DNA of 32,000 bases from Mesoplasma florum L1 (GTDB taxonomy: Bacteria; Bacillota_I; Bacilli_A; Mycoplasmatales; Mycoplasmataceae): the NCBI RefSeq assembly GCF_000008305.1, contig NC_006055.1, positions 60,001 to 92,000 on the forward strand, given 5' to 3'. A program made the position numbers and the translations under genes. This document shows positions 1,953-9,918 of this stretch, in pieces. Position 1 is the stretch's first letter, and every line of letters starts with the position of its first letter. The notes under the pieces are model-generated. The model was not told where the DNA came from and did not search any database. It was given only the letters and a program-made list of their open reading frames with translations.

Positions 1953-2552
1953 TTAAAATTTCTTAGCAGCAGCAATCAAATCAGAAGTTATTGATGAAAC
2001 AATTTCTTTTGGAGATTGAGTACTTAGTGGTTCAACCTTAACACCAGCTAATAAAATAGGTTCAGCAACTTTTGCCCCCATAAATTCTCATGTACCTTTT
2101 AAATATGCTACATGATCTCCTCATGGGTATCAACCTTTTGGAGCTCCTTGAGTAGCAAGTATTTGAACTTTAAGTTTATCTAATAAACCAATGCTTGCAC
2201 CCTTTGTTGCGTATTTATAAGAAAAAGTTTGGTTAGCTAAAGCAACATGGTCAATATAGTTTTTTAACATTCCAGAAACATGGAAGTTATACATTGGAGC
2301 GATAACTAATAATTTATCAACATCTTTTAATTGATTAATATATTTCATTCCTTCTTCTTCACCTCAATAAGTTGAAAAAGTTTCAGTTGTTAAAACATTT
2401 GTTCCGACAACAAGTTTATTTAAATCTAATTCAATAATCTCGTCATTTGGATTAACTTTTTTGTATTCCTCTAAAAATATTCTTGCCATTTCGTGTGAAT
2501 TTGATTTATCACTTGGAATAACAGAACCATTTATAACTAATAATTTACTCAT
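1953..2552 (-). CDS. azoR: FMN-dependent NADH-azoreductase / quinone reductase family protein (199 aa)
   Basis: Track ORFs 2364..2552 and 2130..2348 are in one frame. Reading five in-frame TGA codons (2362-2364, 2130-2132, 2121-2123, 2088-2090 and one more between the two fragments) as Trp extends the ORF to TAA at 1953-1955. SD aaggaga lies upstream of the ATG at 2552. Flavodoxin-like AzoR/AcpD pattern MSKLLVINGS..., APMYNF, LKNYIDH. Confidence 0.85.
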
Positions 2553-3481: not shown

Positions 3482-4273
3482 ATGGCAGGAGTATATGATA
3501 CACATTGTCACTTAAATGACAATATTTATATTGAAAATGAAATCTCAAGCAGCGAAATGGCGGCTGAGGCTAAAAAAAGCGGAGTAGACATAATTAATAA
3601 TGTTGGGTATGATATAAAATCATCAAAAGTTGCTTTAGTTCAAGCACAAAAAAATAAACATGTTTGAGCATTAGTTGGAATACATCCAACACACGCACAA
3701 TTTTTTACAGATGAAGCATATAATACTTTAGAGATTTTAGCTAACGCAGATAAAGTGGTTGGAATTGGTGAGACCGGTTTAGATTATTCAAGAGGCATTG
3801 AATATAAAAACCAACAAATTAGTGGATTTACAAAACAAGTTAAACTTGCTAAGAAAATGGATTTACCATTAATGTTACACGTAAGGGATATTGAAGGATC
3901 AATTGATGCTTATCACGATGTTTTAGCTATATTAAAAAAAGAGAAATATCATAAAGCAGTTTTACATGCTTTTAATGAAAGTTTAGAGATTGCAGAAATG
4001 TTTATTGAAAAAGGTATTCTAATATCAATAAATGGTCAAGTTACAAGAGATAAAAATTTAAAAAAAGTTGTTAAAGAATTACCAATGAATAGTATAGTTG
4101 TTGAATCAGATGCACCTTACGATACACCTAAACCATACAATAAAAAAACTAATGCTCCAAAATATTTACCTTTAGTTGTTGAAGCAATAGCTAATATTAA
4201 AAAAATGAGCAGATCTGATGTAGCAGAAATAACAAGGGATAATGCAGTTAGATTATTTTTCCCAAAAAGATAA
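3482..4273 (+). CDS. TatD-family metal-dependent hydrolase/DNase (copy 2)
   Basis: Track ORFs 3482..3667 and 3755..4273 share a frame. TGA at 3665-3667 is read as Trp (KHV-W-ALVGIHP). Motifs DTHCHL, GETGLDY, LHAFN and ESDAPY. It has its own SD agagga and a tataat box in the 42-bp spacer after copy 1. Confidence 0.9.
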
Positions 4274-4300
4274 AAAACTTAGCAAACGCTAAGTTTTTTA
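4272..4300. terminator. bidirectional terminator between tatD copy 2 and the convergent Cys-rich micro-ORF
   Basis: Stem cttagc (4278-4283), loop aaac, gctaag (4288-4293). It is flanked by A6 on the left and T6 on the right. Confidence 0.75.
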
Positions 4301-4411
4301 TTAGTCACAAGCACACTCACTCATTGTGCAATTGCAATCTTTACAAGTACAGCTTTCTTTAGTGCAATCAGCACAGCTGCATGTTTTACAAGTACATTTA
4401 TTATCTGCCAT
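4301..4411 (-). CDS. 36-aa cysteine-rich, metallothionein-like peptide (MADNKCTCKTCSCADCTKESCTCKDCNCTMSECACD); absent from the ORF track because it is under 60 aa
   Basis: ATG at 4411-4409, with GGAGGT SD at 4423-4418 (6-nt spacer) and TAA at 4303-4301. 11 of 36 residues are Cys, with no aromatic residues and no His. The CTCKxCxC module occurs twice, backed by an exact in-frame 12-nt repeat at 4340-4351 and 4385-4396. A terminator lies immediately downstream. Confidence 0.6.
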   Translation of the reverse strand: MADNKCTCKTCSCADCTKESCTCKDCNCTMSECACD

Positions 4412-4423
4412 ATACAAACCTCC

Positions 4424-4438
4424 AAGGAATTATTCCTT
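4424..4438. promoter_or_regulatory. perfect 7-1-7 palindrome AAGGAAT-T-ATTCCTT abutting the SD of the Cys-rich micro-ORF (candidate operator or 5'-UTR hairpin)
   Basis: Read directly: aaggaat (4424-4430), t (4431), attcctt (4432-4438). It ends one base from the SD at 4418-4423. Confidence 0.4.
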
Positions 4439-4464
4439 AATTTAATAGTATCACTTTAATATAA

Positions 4465-4492
4465 ATATGTATATAAAATATGTATATAAAAT
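4465..4492. repeat. tandem direct repeat, 2 x 13 bp (ATATGTATATAAA), in the divergent promoter region
   Basis: atatgtatataaa at 4465-4477 and again at 4478-4490. It lies just upstream of the -10-like tgatatataat (4498-4508) of the 4526 gene. Confidence 0.45.
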
Positions 4493-4525
4493 TATTTTGA
4501 TATATAATAATTAAAAGAGGTTAAA

Positions 4526-4846
4526 ATGAAAAACGAAGAATTTGAAGTTATTAATAAACTAGGTGGAAAACAAGTTAACATTTATTTAAATGATGAGACT
4601 TTAATATTAGAAAAACTTTTTGAACAAAAATATAATCAAAAACCAAATAGATCAAAAATATATAAAGATTTTTTAAAAAAACAATTAGGTGATGATTTGT
4701 TAAGTGAAATAAATGATTTTGATAAAAACATTTGCAGTTGTTGTGAAGGTGATTTTTCATTTACAAAAAAACAAATGTATTTATGTAATAATAAAGAAAA
4801 TAAAACAGCGTGCATAATTTGCGAAGACTGTATAATAAAAAAATAA
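4526..4846 (+). CDS. hypothetical 106-aa protein: putative ribbon-helix-helix DNA-binding N-terminus plus a 7-Cys C-terminal domain
   Basis: Intact ORF with SD aagagg at 4514-4519. Residues 15-54 (KQVNIYLNDETLILEKLFEQKY..NRSKIYKDFLKKQL) have a strand-helix-helix pattern. The C-terminus is CSCC..x13..C..x8..CIICEDC. It is divergent from the Cys-rich micro-ORF. The function is an inference. Confidence 0.7.
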   Translation: MKNEEFEVINKLGGKQVNIYLNDETLILEKLFEQKYNQKPNRSKIYKDFLKKQLGDDLLSEINDFDKNICSCCEGDFSFTKKQMYLCNNKENKTACIICEDCIIKK

Positions 4847-4864
4847 AAGCTTTAAGGAGCTTTT
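4845..4864. terminator. weak bidirectional hairpin between the 4526 gene and convergent msrA
   Basis: aaaagct (4845-4851), loop ttaagg, agctttt (4858-4864), followed by a T-run. The stem is AT-rich and overlaps both stop codons. Confidence 0.45.
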
Positions 4865-5354
4865 ATTTTTTATAATCTGATAAATCAATGTGACAATAAC
4901 CATTAGGATTTTTGTCCAAATATTTTTGGTGATATTCCTCAGCATCAAAGAAATTTTTTAATATTTCATTTTCAACAACAACTTTTTGAGTTGTTTGTTT
5001 TTGAAAGTTTTCCAAATATTTTTTTACAAAAGTAAAATCAAATTCATTTATTGAATATATACCAGTTCTATATTGTGTACCCCTATCATTCCCCTGTTGG
5101 TTTAGTAAAAATGGATTTATTATTGAAAAATATAAATCTAATATTTCTTTAAGAGATATTTCTTTTTCATTAAATTCAATTTTTAAAGTTTCTGTATGAT
5201 TTGTTTTTCCAGTACAAACTTCTTCATAAGTAGGGTTATCTATATCGCCTTGTGCATAACCAACAGTTGTTTTAATTATTCCTTTTTGATAATCAAAAAA
5301 AGCTTGAACTCCTCAGAAACAACCCCCAGCTAAATATATAGTTTTATTTTCCAT
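4863..5354 (-). CDS. msrA: peptide-methionine (S)-S-oxide reductase
   Basis: Not in the ORF track because it is split by TGA. The translation is [20 protein letters not shown]...GNDRGTQYRTGIY...EEYHQKYL...; the catalytic GCFWG Trp is a TGA codon (5313-5315). 163 aa, TAA stop at 4863-4865. Confidence 0.95.
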
Positions 5355-5649
5355 AATTTTTGACTCCTCAATCACTCATTTGATCTAGTATTGGTTTTAA
5401 GCTTTTACCTAAATCTGTTAAACTGTATTCAACCTTTGGTGGAACAACAGGGTAAACTGTTCTTTCTACAAGTTTATTTTCTTCTAAAAACCTCAAGTTT
5501 GATGTTAATACCTTTTGACTAATGCCTGCTATTCTTTTTTCCAATTCATTAAAGCGACAAGTTCCAAATGAAAGTTCTCGTATGATTAATATAACTCACT
5601 TTGATTTAATAAAATTTAATGTGTATTCTAATGGGCAAAATTTTTCCAT
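5344..5649 (-). CDS. HxlR/DUF24-family winged-helix transcriptional regulator (101 aa) with N-terminal Cys5
   Basis: Not in the ORF track (in-frame TGAs). The translation [81 protein letters not shown] matches the HxlR pattern CP..tl..i..KW...I...L....RF.EL...I..IS...L...L..LE...LV.R......P..VEY.LT..G. SD aaggaaa. Its stop overlaps the msrA start by 11 nt. Confidence 0.85.
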
Positions 5650-5767: not shown

Positions 5768-6367
5768 ATGAAAAAAGTATTAGTAATTAATTCAAGTGTT
5801 TCTCAATTAAACAATTCAGATTCATTAGCAATGTCAAACATGTTTATTGAAGAATATAAAAAAATGAATCCAAATGATGAAATCATTAATCTAGATTTAA
5901 ATGAGACTAAAATGTCACAAAAAACATTAACAAGAAATAATATCGCTGAATATTTCAATCAAGAAGATTCATTTGATTTTATAGAACAATTAAAATCAGT
6001 TGACAAAATAGTTTTAAATTTTTCAATGGTTAACTGAGGTATACCAGCTATATTAAAAAACTATATAGATCATATAACAATTGCAAACCTTACTTTTACA
6101 TATAAGGGCTCAACAGATGGTAATGCAATAGGGTTACTTTCAAATATACAGGATGTTCAAATTTTAGCAACAAAAGGTGGAACTGGAACTCCAAACTCAG
6201 CATTTACAGAATATGTAAAAAACATTTGAGAATTTTTAGGTGCTAAGGTAAAAAGCGAAATCATCATTAACGAAATGATGGATATACCACCTTATGCAGA
6301 ACAATCTCCAATTGAGAATTTAGAAAAAGTAAAAGAACAAATTTTAAAAGCTGCTAAAAACTTTTAA
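5768..6367 (+). CDS. azoR: FMN-dependent NADH-azoreductase / quinone reductase family protein, second paralog (199 aa)
   Basis: Track ORF 5768..6037 continues through TGA at 6035-6037 and 6227-6229 to TAA at 6365-6367. It has the same length and the same conserved blocks as the 1953..2552 copy (EEYKK.NPNDEII.LDL, LKNYIDH, VQILATxG, WEFxGAKV). Confidence 0.85.
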
Positions 6368-7943: not shown

Positions 7944-8054
7944 ATGTTCTCCTAAAATAAATCTTTTTAATTTTATCAAAATAAAAATAATAATAAAGTC
8001 ATCAATCTTTATCTAAAATTTTTATTATTTTTAGTGTTATACCTTTTTATAATT

Positions 8055-8960
8055 TTATCTATTAAAAATCCATTTACAATTAATAAAATTAAAGATATAG
8101 AAATTGTAAATGATGTGTCAGTTATTCAATGTGTTCTTTGAAATAATTTGTGTATATTGCATTAAATTAATGTGAATAAATCATATTACTAAAAATGCTT
8201 ATTTTCAAATATTTATGTTTCTATTCTTTCTTTGTAAAAACAGATTCTACTGTTCCTTCATTTAAAATCCCCTCAACTCTTAATTGTATGACCAGTTTGC
8301 ATTCAATAGTCTCTTCATTCAGGCTGAAGTCTATCAGAGTAAAACAAGTTAAAAAAATCTACGCTATAAAAGTAAGGTCTACCGAAAACAGGCTTCATTA
8401 TTCATACAACTAAACTTGATAATATATAAATAGTTAAAGTTTTAATTGAGTCAACTCTGTAACCATTTTTTAAAAGGCCTGCTCTATTAGAAAATTTAAA
8501 TCTAAGATAATAAAAAGTTGCAACGAAACCTAATGTTTCTATAATAAAAATTGCAATTAAAATATATTGTCTTATTTTTTGACTATCAAGAAATCAGCCA
8601 TTTACACCTGGACCAAATTCATCGTTTCTATTAGGCGCAGAAACAATCTCAATAATATTAAATGAAAGTCAAAAAACTAATCAACCAACATAGTATAAAA
8701 TAAGTATAATTTTTCACTTCATGCTTTTATTTAATGAAATGAAAGTAACTTCTAAAATAACGACGATAAATAGAAATATAAAAATAAATGATTGAGTCAT
8801 TCCAGCTTTTTTTATAAACCCAAACTATTATTTTGATAACCCTGTTGTTCATTCCTTTAGCAAATCAAGAATTTATTTGCATGTCAAAAAAACTTCCTAC
8901 AAAGAAAAGTGTTACTGAAAGAACTAAAAAACTTATAACCAAAACCTTTAAAATAGTATA
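8055..8960 (-). pseudogene. decayed multi-TM membrane protein gene (possibly PAP2-phosphatase-like), with at least 2 frameshifts and 1 nonsense codon
   Basis: Three minus-strand segments are involved. (1) Frame A at 8960..8727: ...LKVLVISFLVLSVTLFFVGSFFDMQINSWFAKGMNNRVIKIIVWVYKK. (2) Frame B, open from 8824 with an ATG at 8800, running to TAA at 8213: MTQSFIFIFLFIVVIL...WIMKPVFGRPYFYSV...WMQTGHT.... (3) Frame A again at 8198..8055: AFLVIWFIH...SKNTLNNWHIIYN.... The A-to-B switch coincides with a T7 (A7 on the coding strand) run at 8807-8813. Confidence 0.5.
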
Positions 8961-8964
8961 TTAA

Positions 8965-9918
8965 TTATTTTTCTTTTGAAATGTGTTCATTTTTTATTTT
9001 ATTAACCTTAGAATTTTTATTTCTTGATTCACTTGCCATTTTTTCAACATCAGCAACATAAGCTCACATTTTTTGTTTCTTTAGAAATTTACTCAAACCA
9101 TATCAATTGACTCTTATTGGTTTTAAATTAACTCTACCAATAGGCAATCTATCCTGAATTGTTGTAATTTTCTTATTGGTTAAAATTAATTCTTTGCTTT
9201 CGTTTAATCTTTTTGAAATATTTTTATTAATTTCATCAATGTGTTCAAAAATATTATCAATATTTCCGTATTTATTTAAAAGGTCTATTGCTTGAGCATA
9301 ATGTAAATATCTAACACCTTTGATATTGTCACTAGGATCACCCATCAGCGCTTTTATATCAGCAACTTGACTAGGATGACATCCAAATTTTTCAACAACT
9401 TTTTCGTGATCAATTAAAATATGCTCGTCATCTTTACTACTATTAGTAATTACTGTAGTTCTTTCACCAACAAGCTGGAAAATATCTTTATCATTTGACA
9501 ATATATGTACGTCATAGTCTAATTTGAGAGCTATTCTGTTAATTGTTCCGATAATATCATCAGCTTCGTATCTAGGCATTTCATATCATGGAATATTAGC
9601 CGCAGTTAAAAATTCTCTAATGATTTGTTTTTGTGGAACTAAATCTTCAGGAGTTTCTTTTCTTTTTGCTTTATATTCTGGATACAATTCTCGACGTCAA
9701 CAACCTTCATCCATGTCTAAAGTAACAATGATGCTGTAGTAGTTATTTTTCTTTACTAATTGATTAATTTTTGCAACAAAAGTGTAAATCGCATTGATCG
9801 GAACACCTTCTCTGTTAGTTGCTAATTTCTTTCTCTTAAGAGTTCCGTAGTAACCCTTATGTAGCAAATGATACCCGTCGATAATTAATATCGTGCGTTT
9901 TTCATTTAATGTATTCAT
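8965..9918 (-). CDS. stand-alone 5'-3' exonuclease (Pol I N-terminal / FEN-like domain), 317 aa
   Basis: Track ORFs 9697..9918 and 9103..9579 share a frame. The TGAs at 9697-9699, 9586-9588, 9103-9105 and 9064-9066 are read as Trp, and I checked that the gaps are open. Motifs LIIDGYHLLHKGYYG, YKAKRKETPEDL, EADDIIGT, GDPSDNIKGV. TAA at 8965-8967. Confidence 0.9.

Follow-up and report, generated by a model that had tools for sequence, protein, structure and literature searches.

The closest described counterparts of the gene reported here are the metallothioneins (MTs). The alpha-domain of vertebrate MTs carries 11 cysteines and forms an M(II)4 cluster, the Neurospora-type Cu-MT is 26 amino acids long, and MTs in the apo form are disordered. 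Among the bacterial systems, SmtA serves to detoxify Zn and MymT to detoxify Cu (PMC7387436). MymT, a Cys-rich protein of ~5 kDa that is predicted to bind at most six Cu(I), was found as a small open reading frame (ORF) that lacked annotation, and its up-regulation is required for Cu resistance (PMC7558416). An MT encoded by a Mollicute is not found in the searchable literature, where the matches concern host MTs; a first-pass annotation of the DNA studied here had made the same point. This DNA is a stretch of 32,000 nucleotides from the genome of Mesoplasma florum L1 (NC_006055.1, positions 60,001–92,000 of the forward strand; hereafter, the window), and the element in question is a micro-ORF on its minus strand that specifies a Cys-rich peptide of 36 residues. 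The micro-ORF is a genuine, conserved, strongly transcribed and previously unannotated gene. Judged from its sequence, the peptide is, on balance, probably a ligand for metal-thiolate clusters of the metallothionein type.

The micro-ORF gene comprises the elements listed below in window positions; addition of 60,000 gives the L1 genome coordinate (NC_006055), and the published coordinates of mfl048/tatD (63482–64273) and mfl049 (64526–64846) agree with this conversion.

4301–4411, minus strand: coding sequence of the 36-residue Cys-rich, MT-like peptide, stop codon included (translation, intact orthologs in 8 lineages, dN/dS)
4340–4351, unstranded: copy 1 of an exact 12-nt internal repeat, TTTACAAGTACA on the plus strand, encoding the second CTCK (sequence comparison)
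4385–4396, unstranded: copy 2 of the 12-nt repeat, 45 nt from copy 1, encoding the first CTCK (sequence comparison)
4418–4423, minus strand: Shine-Dalgarno (SD) sequence GGAGGT, followed by the 6-nt spacer TTGTAT; the GGAGG core is invariant in 8 lineages and lies 5–7 nt from the ATG
4424–4438, minus strand: transcription start site (TSS) A4438 and 5'-terminal hairpin AAGGAAUAAUUCCUU, which starts at mRNA position +1 (published 5'-RACE, the rapid amplification of 5' cDNA ends; RNA fold)
4445–4453, minus strand: extended -10 element TGaTACTAT, with the hexamer TACTAT at 4450–4445 (published -10 box; TGnTAnnAT kept in 8 lineages)
4270–4301, unstranded: bidirectional intrinsic terminator, common to the convergent tatD gene mfl048 (terminator scan, fold, conserved hairpin)

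A conserved Cys-rich gene missing from the annotation

The micro-ORF runs on the minus strand from an ATG at 4411–4409 through 36 codons to a TAA at 4303–4301, and its translation is MADNKCTCKTCSCADCTKESCTCKDCNCTMSECACD. Re-reading of the DNA reproduced the ORF as first proposed, with the same start, SD sequence, 6-nt spacer, stop and coordinates. The peptide (3,854 Da, or 3.85 kDa) contains 11 Cys (30.6%) at positions 6, 8, 11, 13, 16, 21, 23, 26, 28, 33 and 35, which form five CxC pairs with C16 left over. The only spacings are CxC and CxxC, and Phe, Trp, Tyr and His are absent; a recount of the cysteines, the pairs, the aromatics and His gave the numbers reported earlier. The peptide begins with hydrophilic residues (MADNK) and has neither a leader nor a signal sequence, and no fold elements are predicted. 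The octapeptide CTCKxCxC occurs twice (residues 6–13 and 21–28) and is accompanied by the two exact 12-nt repeat copies, all of which were found where the first-pass annotation had placed them. Its interpretation of these repeats as an in-frame internal duplication holds at the DNA level, but the natural length variant described below differs by 10 codons and not by the 15-codon period.

The ORF was correctly described as richer in GC than its surroundings (36.9% versus 27.6% for the window). Long ORFs in the window are continuous only under genetic code 4, and among the 140 ATG-started ORFs of at least 25 residues read with this code the runner-up in Cys-richness has 6 Cys in 33 residues. At the six-frame Cys frequency of 1.5%, a chain of 36 residues would contain 11 or more Cys with a binomial probability of 3e-12, and when the window was shuffled 200 times, short ORFs reached 8 Cys at most. 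The Cys content of the peptide is far beyond chance.

Orthologous loci were taken from every lineage with mfl049 and from M. grammopterae, the latter (L001) from a contig scan for TatD that returned this species alone. This yielded 13 loci from 8 lineages: M. florum, M. grammopterae, M. tabanidae, M. entomophilum, M. coleopterae, M. melaleucae, M. chauliocola and one uncultured lineage. In 13 of the 13 loci the interval from tatD to mfl049 contained a Cys-rich ORF on the opposite strand, at the same place and in the same orientation, and in all of them the gene callers had left it uncalled. Across the 8 lineages the start, the SD sequence and the stop are invariant, frameshifts and internal stops are absent, and the indels are in-frame. 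The 36-residue form is found in 6 lineages, with 81–94% amino acid identity, versus 67–81% for Mfl049 in the other species. Between these forms the Nei–Gojobori dN/dS was 0.02–0.19 where dS could be estimated, the synonymous sites being saturated in the pairs that are most distant. Switches between TGT and TGC were seen at 8 of the 11 Cys codons, with no Cys replaced, and the variable alignment columns were distributed over codon positions 1, 2 and 3 as 8, 4 and 23 (p = 2e-4).

Two natural variants depart from the 36-residue form (masses of the length variants, 2,861 and 4,030 Da). In M. chauliocola the peptide has 37 residues and one His, and its central Cys positions are rearranged without a change in the total of 11. 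A form of 26 residues with 8 Cys (31%), in which an in-frame deletion of 10 codons has left the CxCxxCxC register intact, occurs in the uncultured, Mesoplasma-like lineage; this form is identical in three independent sequencing runs (Logan assemblies L006, L007 and L008, from SRR21833204, SRR12632484 and SRR21833201). Selection acts on the protein, because dN/dS is low, the variation is codon-periodic, the Cys codons change only synonymously and the variants are informative. The variants suggest that it is apparently the number and spacing of the thiolates, and not a fixed fold, that is selected. From the selection signature together with the SD sequence we infer that the micro-ORF is translated. 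The proposal of a gene came through the comparison well: the intact ORF, its cysteines, its synteny and its signature of purifying selection were retained in 8 Mesoplasma lineages. It was also rightly called unannotated, as no annotation or protein collection that was searched contains the peptide.

Insertion sequence (IS) elements have entered the locus in two species. In M. tabanidae (L002, 2570–3706) an IS element with HTH_21 and rve_3 matches lies between tatD and the terminator, and the micro-ORF and its signals are untouched. In M. melaleucae (L009, 4330–5300) hxlR is missing, the azoreductase gene is split into small ORFs and IS elements are nearby, and the micro-ORF and mfl049 are intact. 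Since M. melaleucae keeps this pair without intact hxlR and azoR, its retention does not depend on the thiol-stress genes.

Transcription and the divergent gene mfl049

The 5' end of the transcript, the mapping of which had been put forward as a check, was already contained in a genome-wide TSS map made by 5'-RACE under one growth condition (Matteau et al. 2020, PMC7745072). This map lists an "orphan TSS" at 64437–64438 on the minus strand (base A, -10 box TACTAT at 64444–64450, 105,743 read starts per million, RSPM; Datasets EV1 and EV4), which EV4 describes merely as facing mfl048. The site is A4438, 27 nt upstream of the ATG, and it is the promoter start of the micro-ORF gene. In the complete published list of motif-associated intergenic TSSs it ranks third, after pgk (188,822) and mfl172 (127,943) and ~6-fold above the fourth, pfkA (18,150), but these values are not readable as abundance, since the authors found the TSS signal to be without clear correlation to RNA-seq expression (PMC7745072). 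The authors considered that orphan TSSs could be small RNAs (sRNAs) or antisense RNAs, and proposed six-frame mass spectrometry (MS) searches for small ORFs (PMC7745072). A 2024 review of M. florum does not mention metals, cysteine, sRNAs or orphan TSSs. As a separate observation, the promoter of mfl172, a short-chain dehydrogenase gene outside the window (L1 200968, plus strand), is surprisingly strong for its gene type (PMC7745072).

A -35-like TATACA is located at 4473–4468, 17 nt from the -10 element, and is supplied by the 13-bp repeats listed below; the combination of TATACA, 17 nt and TGnTACTAT is near-optimal. The transcript is ~170 nt long, structured (fold z = -2.5) and monocistronic. 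Its 5' untranslated region of 27 nt consists of the hairpin AAGGAA-UAA-UUCCUU followed by a free GGAGG. The claim that the ORF has a terminator of its own was borne out by a 14-bp hairpin and T-run (4301–4270) directly 3' of the stop, for which the expected count in shuffles of the region was 0.0, with the addition that tatD has it in common; on the plus strand, a terminator at 64277–64293 is assigned to peg.48 in Dataset EV2 (Matteau et al. 2020, PMC7745072). TGnTAnnAT, the hairpin arms AAGGA/TCCTT, GGAGG, the ATG and the terminator are kept in all 8 lineages while the adjacent spacers diverge. A leader peptide or attenuator was considered and rejected: there is no downstream gene, and the ORF runs into the terminator and the convergent tatD.

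The hairpin loop differs in sequence and length between species, and the arms are invariant. A reading of the AAGGAA...TTCCTT palindrome as a dimer operator was rejected, as the spacing of the arms varies by 1–2 nt among species and the element begins at the mapped +1; the loop variation, the invariant arms and the start at +1 favour a hairpin at the RNA 5' end instead. 5'-Terminal stem-loops protect Bacillus mRNAs against 5'-end-dependent decay. As M. florum encodes RNase J1 and J2 (PMC7745072 tables), it is reasonable to extend this role to the +1 hairpin, which likely protects the transcript from RNase J-type 5'-end-dependent decay.

Viable transposon insertions (ESSENTIALITY) were reported at 64365 and 64377, inside the ORF, and, in the SD sequence, at 64420 in two or more clones (Baby et al. 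2018, PMC5893858); the clones are TT01-2627, TT01-977 and TT01-2236/2237. Cells in rich medium can therefore do without the peptide, which would fit a conditional, protective role. There is also a local excess of insertions: at least four in the 56 bp from 4365 to 4420 (L1 64365–64420), versus a genome average of ~1 per 285 bp. The very high transcription of the site may make the segment a hotspot, or insertion there may be fitness-neutral or beneficial.

The gene divergent from the micro-ORF and the elements between the two are as follows.

4526–4846, plus strand: mfl049, encoding a 106-residue protein found in the M. florum clade only (homolog search, alignment, AlphaFold2 (AF2) model, MS)
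4503–4513, plus strand: -10 box TATAAT (4503–4508) and TSS A4513 of mfl049 (Dataset EV1, TSS 64512–64513 on the plus strand, 43 RSPM; TATAAT conserved)
4463–4488, unstranded: a 13-bp unit, in minus-strand reading TATATACATATTT, repeated directly in two tandem copies; a candidate shared operator (no further exact copy in the window)

The micro-ORF and mfl049 occur together in each of the 8 lineages. The 13-bp-spaced tandem repeat is likewise found in all 8, in contrast to the diverging spacers beside it; in M. tabanidae it occurs as three copies of a single unit variant. The centre of the repeat block (4475.5) is the exact midpoint of the two TSSs, so that relative to either promoter the block occupies -25 to -50. 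The enterococcal CopY cop box, TACAnnTGTA, was rejected as the identity of the repeats, which are direct and not inverted. Tandem direct repeats are the type of site that ribbon-helix-helix (RHH) proteins typically bind.

Homologs of Mfl049 were found in Mesoplasma only (67–98% identity). Their alignment shows an invariant N-terminal half and seven invariant Cys, arranged as CxCC...C...CxxCxxC. The AF2 model of Mfl049 (pLDDT 69) has two long helices, the N-terminal half being helical, and a C-terminal beta-hairpin region. Neither Pfam, NCBIfam, PHROGs, PADLOC nor the PDB yielded a significant match to Mfl049, a Foldseek search of the model against the PDB returned nothing with E < 0.78, and an alignment search of metagenomes gave no confirmed locus. 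When Mfl049 was compared with RHH domains by hhalign, the NikR/CopG register was aligned without statistical support (E = 0.068, probability below 1%), and the confidence of the AF2 monomer is low exactly at the putative strand (residues 15–21). Mfl049 may be a metal- or thiol-sensing regulator of the pair, a role that stays hypothetical since the RHH match is not significant and the Pfam, PDB and Foldseek searches came back empty. The protein was seen by MS at ~74 copies per cell (Dataset EV6, PMC7745072), and the TSS signals of the micro-ORF and mfl049 differ ~2,500-fold (105,743 versus 43 RSPM). No transposon insertion was obtained in mfl049, which was classed as core and "essential" (Baby et al. 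2018, PMC5893858), a weak indication given a gene of 321 bp and ~1 insertion per 285 bp.

The order of genes around the pair is ackA, proC, azoR (minus), tatD, tatD, micro-ORF (minus), mfl049 (plus), msrA (minus), hxlR (minus), azoR (plus) and an ABC-F gene (minus). The flanking tatD and its M. grammopterae counterpart have 98% identity. The surroundings of the tatD ortholog were examined in four outgroups (Entomoplasma ellychniae, Williamsoniiplasma somnilux, Mesoplasma seiffertii and Mycoplasma capricolum), and within 10 kb of it the micro-ORF, mfl049 and the repeat were absent in 4 of 4; in E. ellychniae, tatD directly adjoins the ABC-F gene. Because the pair is absent near tatD in these outgroups, it seems to have originated within the M. 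florum clade. Elsewhere in the window (~8039–8978, minus strand), a gene for a PAP2-family membrane phosphatase, 371–384 residues long in sister species, is fragmented. Its tblastn pieces lie in different frames, residues ~240–302 are missing and the remaining ORF has 195 residues (8213–8800), for which reasons the gene is probably a pseudogene in this strain.

Candidate functions of the peptide

Relatives of the peptide were sought in several ways. An exhaustive phmmer search of 1.84 billion representative proteins gave no match, a word-indexed search of 5.8 billion clusters with the peptide padded with its real upstream codons to reach the 40-residue minimum found no relative, and none of nine peptide variants was present among 15 billion proteins in an exact look-up. 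Pfam, NCBIfam, PHROGs and PADLOC contained no significant match, and an alignment search of metagenomes gave no confirmed locus. A sequence search of the PDB returned noise only, including CCHC zinc knuckles of the HIV nucleocapsid (E ~0.24) and the Pseudomonas PflQ2 MT (6gv6, E = 3.9). The sole recurring sub-threshold similarity in Pfam was to PF12749 (Metallothio_Euk), seen in 3 of 8 members with E = 0.44 and 11 bits versus a cutoff of 22 bits; PF00131 (Metallothio) and PF02069 (Metallothio_Pro) did not match even at E ≤ 10. With human MT2A, BLASTP aligned only S-C-x-C-K-[DE] (E = 0.81). At the sequence level the peptide has the properties by which MTs are operationally recognized: a mass below ~10 kDa, ~30% Cys in CxC and CxxC, neither aromatics nor His, and conserved cysteines. 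The earlier designation "metallothionein-like" is upheld by composition and motif, and not by homology, as the best score for any MT family, that of PF12749, is below threshold.

The peptide is best read as the member of a new MT-like family, the first proposed for a Mollicute and assigned by composition and motif, with no significant homology. The cytosolic 3.85-kDa peptide would act as a metallothionein-type ligand, its 11 thiolates in CxC and CxxC wrapping several soft metal ions into a metal-thiolate cluster. If the 11-Cys M(II)4 alpha-domain of vertebrate MTs is taken as a guide, a load of ~4 Zn/Cd or ~6–8 Cu(I) would be expected. The peptide would buffer or detoxify metal and, secondarily, provide a sacrificial thiol pool, as other MTs do. 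In the most likely regulatory model, which parallels smtB/smtA in layout, Mfl049 would bind the 13-bp repeats and thereby couple metal or thiol status to transcription.

Several points weigh against the metallothionein assignment and the model built on it. Neither an MT family nor any other protein has significant homology to the peptide, so that composition and motif carry the assignment, and the published proteomics searched annotated proteins only (PMC7745072). The very high and apparently constitutive transcription, for which no metal challenge is mentioned, is atypical of metal-induced MTs, and TSS signal and RNA-seq expression were, as said, not clearly correlated. A DNA-binding domain in Mfl049 is not demonstrable by Foldseek, a hidden Markov model search of the PDB or Pfam. 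Finally, the neighbouring genes (msrA, a HxlR/YodB-like regulator and azoreductases) point to thiol or electrophile stress and not to metals. These neighbours are the following.

1953–2552, minus strand: second azoreductase, upstream of the tatD pair
4863–5354, minus strand: msrA (PF01625), overlapping the 3' end of hxlR
5344–5649, minus strand: HxlR-family regulator with an N-terminal Cys (MEKFCP...), divergent from the azoreductase
5768–6367, plus strand: FMN-dependent azoreductase

We take the divergent hxlR/azoR pair to resemble the thiol-stress pair YodB/AzoR1 of B. subtilis. In such a setting the peptide could be a thiol/redox buffer or electrophile sink, an abundant polythiol, sacrificial or regenerable, that scavenges oxidants, quinones and aldehydes. 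Strong transcription without a reported metal challenge fits a housekeeping buffer, no dedicated pathway for a low-molecular-weight thiol was seen in the M. florum annotation tables consulted, and MTs in general also scavenge reactive oxygen and nitrogen species (PMC7387436). However, the link to msrA is not conserved: the gene is found at the locus only in M. florum, M. grammopterae and M. tabanidae, being absent in 5 of the 8 lineages, and in M. melaleucae the micro-ORF and mfl049 have outlived the loss of hxlR and the fragmentation of azoR. The strict number of cysteines and their CxC/CxxC spacing are, moreover, less characteristic of an unspecific thiol pool than of the geometry of a cluster. 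A thiol buffer is the main rival explanation; we consider it unlikely, and it overlaps with the function of an MT instead of excluding it.

The strict pairing with the Cys-rich Mfl049 could also mean that the peptide is a structural zinc micro-protein, a partner or modulator of Mfl049 or of another target, in which Cys-bound Zn merely folds the chain. The weak similarities in the PDB, which are only to retroviral CCHC zinc knuckles, are in keeping with such a role. Yet 11 Cys in 36 residues without a hydrophobic core is far above the need of one or two structural Zn sites, the shuffling of the central cysteines in M. chauliocola is hard to square with a fixed fold or interface, and the ~2,500-fold difference in TSS signal argues against a stoichiometric complex with Mfl049. 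Taken together, these points make a structural micro-protein improbable.

That the product is an abundant small non-coding RNA with an incidental ORF, which is the implicit treatment in PMC7745072, where sRNAs were suggested for orphan TSSs, is very improbable: the transcript is short, structured and highly transcribed, but constraint on an RNA does not explain the codon-periodic substitutions, the low dN/dS, the invariant start, SD sequence and stop, the in-frame indels and the synonymous-only changes at Cys codons, and a scan of the window found no Rfam family (and no tRNA). A dual-function RNA, coding and with an RNA role, is possible. Its small size, its cysteines and the frequent Thr and Ser beside them notwithstanding, the peptide is hardly likely to be the precursor of a modified or secreted Cys-rich product, be it a ribosomally synthesized and post-translationally modified peptide (SCIFF/ranthipeptide, lanthipeptide), a disulfide-rich toxin or a bacteriocin, as none of the 13 loci has a maturase, radical-SAM enzyme, dehydratase, protease or transporter within 4–10 kb, the hydrophilic N-terminus (MADNK) contains no leader or signal sequence, the genome is merely ~0.8 Mb, and the PADLOC and PHROGs searches were negative.

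Going beyond the metallothionein assignment, it is conceivable, if doubtful, that the peptide is among the most abundant products of M. florum and its principal cytosolic metal/thiol buffer, replacing systems of the glutathione type. Together with Mfl049 (Cys7, possibly RHH-type and binding the 13-bp repeats) it would then form a new sensor/effector module with an origin in the M. florum clade and possibly de novo, given that the searches returned no homolog elsewhere for either protein.

M. florum is a near-minimal chassis in development, and genome designs and whole-cell models rest on the genes annotated in it. Among its three strongest mapped promoters is that of a conserved coding gene that is missing from the annotation, the protein databases and the review, and an "orphan TSS" of the reference transcriptome gains an explanation. 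With its promoter, probable 5' stabilizer hairpin, SD sequence and terminator in ~190 bp, the gene also represents a compact, well-defined and very strong expression cassette. If the peptide is indeed a metallothionein, it would reveal an unmodelled sink for cysteine and metal; it would be the first one encoded by a Mollicute, among the smallest in bacteria and of a family without detectable homologs. The natural series of 36 residues with 11 Cys, 37 residues with 11 rearranged Cys and 26 residues with 8 Cys is useful for work on cluster stoichiometry, and the ORFan Mfl049 with its symmetric candidate operator might represent a metal or thiol sensor of a new type.

Comparison with known metal-binding systems

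In several respects the peptide resembles the vertebrate and fungal MTs. With 26–37 residues it is about as long as a single MT domain, its Cys content is ~30%, the spacings are CxC and CxxC only, aromatics and His are lacking in the 36-residue form, and its length varies in a modular fashion. The count of 11 Cys equals that of the vertebrate alpha-domain, and the motif S-C-x-C-K-[DE]-C is locally common to the peptide and human MT2A. It differs from these proteins in being bacterial and without significant homology to them, and its transcription is apparently constitutive and very high, not metal-induced.

The NikR/CopG-type RHH proteins offer a tentative comparison for Mfl049, the N-terminus of which looks similar by eye. 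Its N-terminal pattern V-x-I-x-L-[DN]-D-[DE]...N-R-S...[RK]-D-x-L can be aligned in register with the strand and helices of these proteins, a match that lacks statistical support. Like NikR, Mfl049 has many metal ligands in its C-terminal part, and its candidate target, a tandem direct repeat, would suit an RHH protein. The C-terminal part of Mfl049 is, however, a short Cys7 hairpin region and not ACT-like.

The layout of the locus recalls that of SmtA/BmtA with SmtB, in which the gene is divergent from that of a small metal-ligand-rich protein, with a conserved intergenic operator-promoter (PMC7387436), the operator being a candidate in M. florum. Mfl049 is unlike SmtB in that it does not belong to the ArsR/SmtB family; no match to a winged-helix domain of this family was found in Pfam or NCBIfam. 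SmtA is larger (56 residues) and has a zinc-finger-like fold and His ligands, whereas the 36-residue peptide has neither His nor a predicted fold. The two may be alike in having conditional importance, SmtA in Zn detoxification (PMC7387436) and the peptide through a gene that is dispensable in rich medium.

From MymT, the mycobacterial Cu(I) MT, the peptide is set apart by the lack of sequence similarity in the exhaustive phmmer search and by its mode of expression, MymT being up-regulated whereas the basal transcription of the micro-ORF is extremely high. Both are nevertheless small, Cys-rich products of non-annotated ORFs in bacteria of Gram-positive lineage, each confined to a narrow clade, and the micro-ORF of M. 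florum, like MymT before it, exemplifies the small and compositionally extreme genes that gene callers systematically miss.

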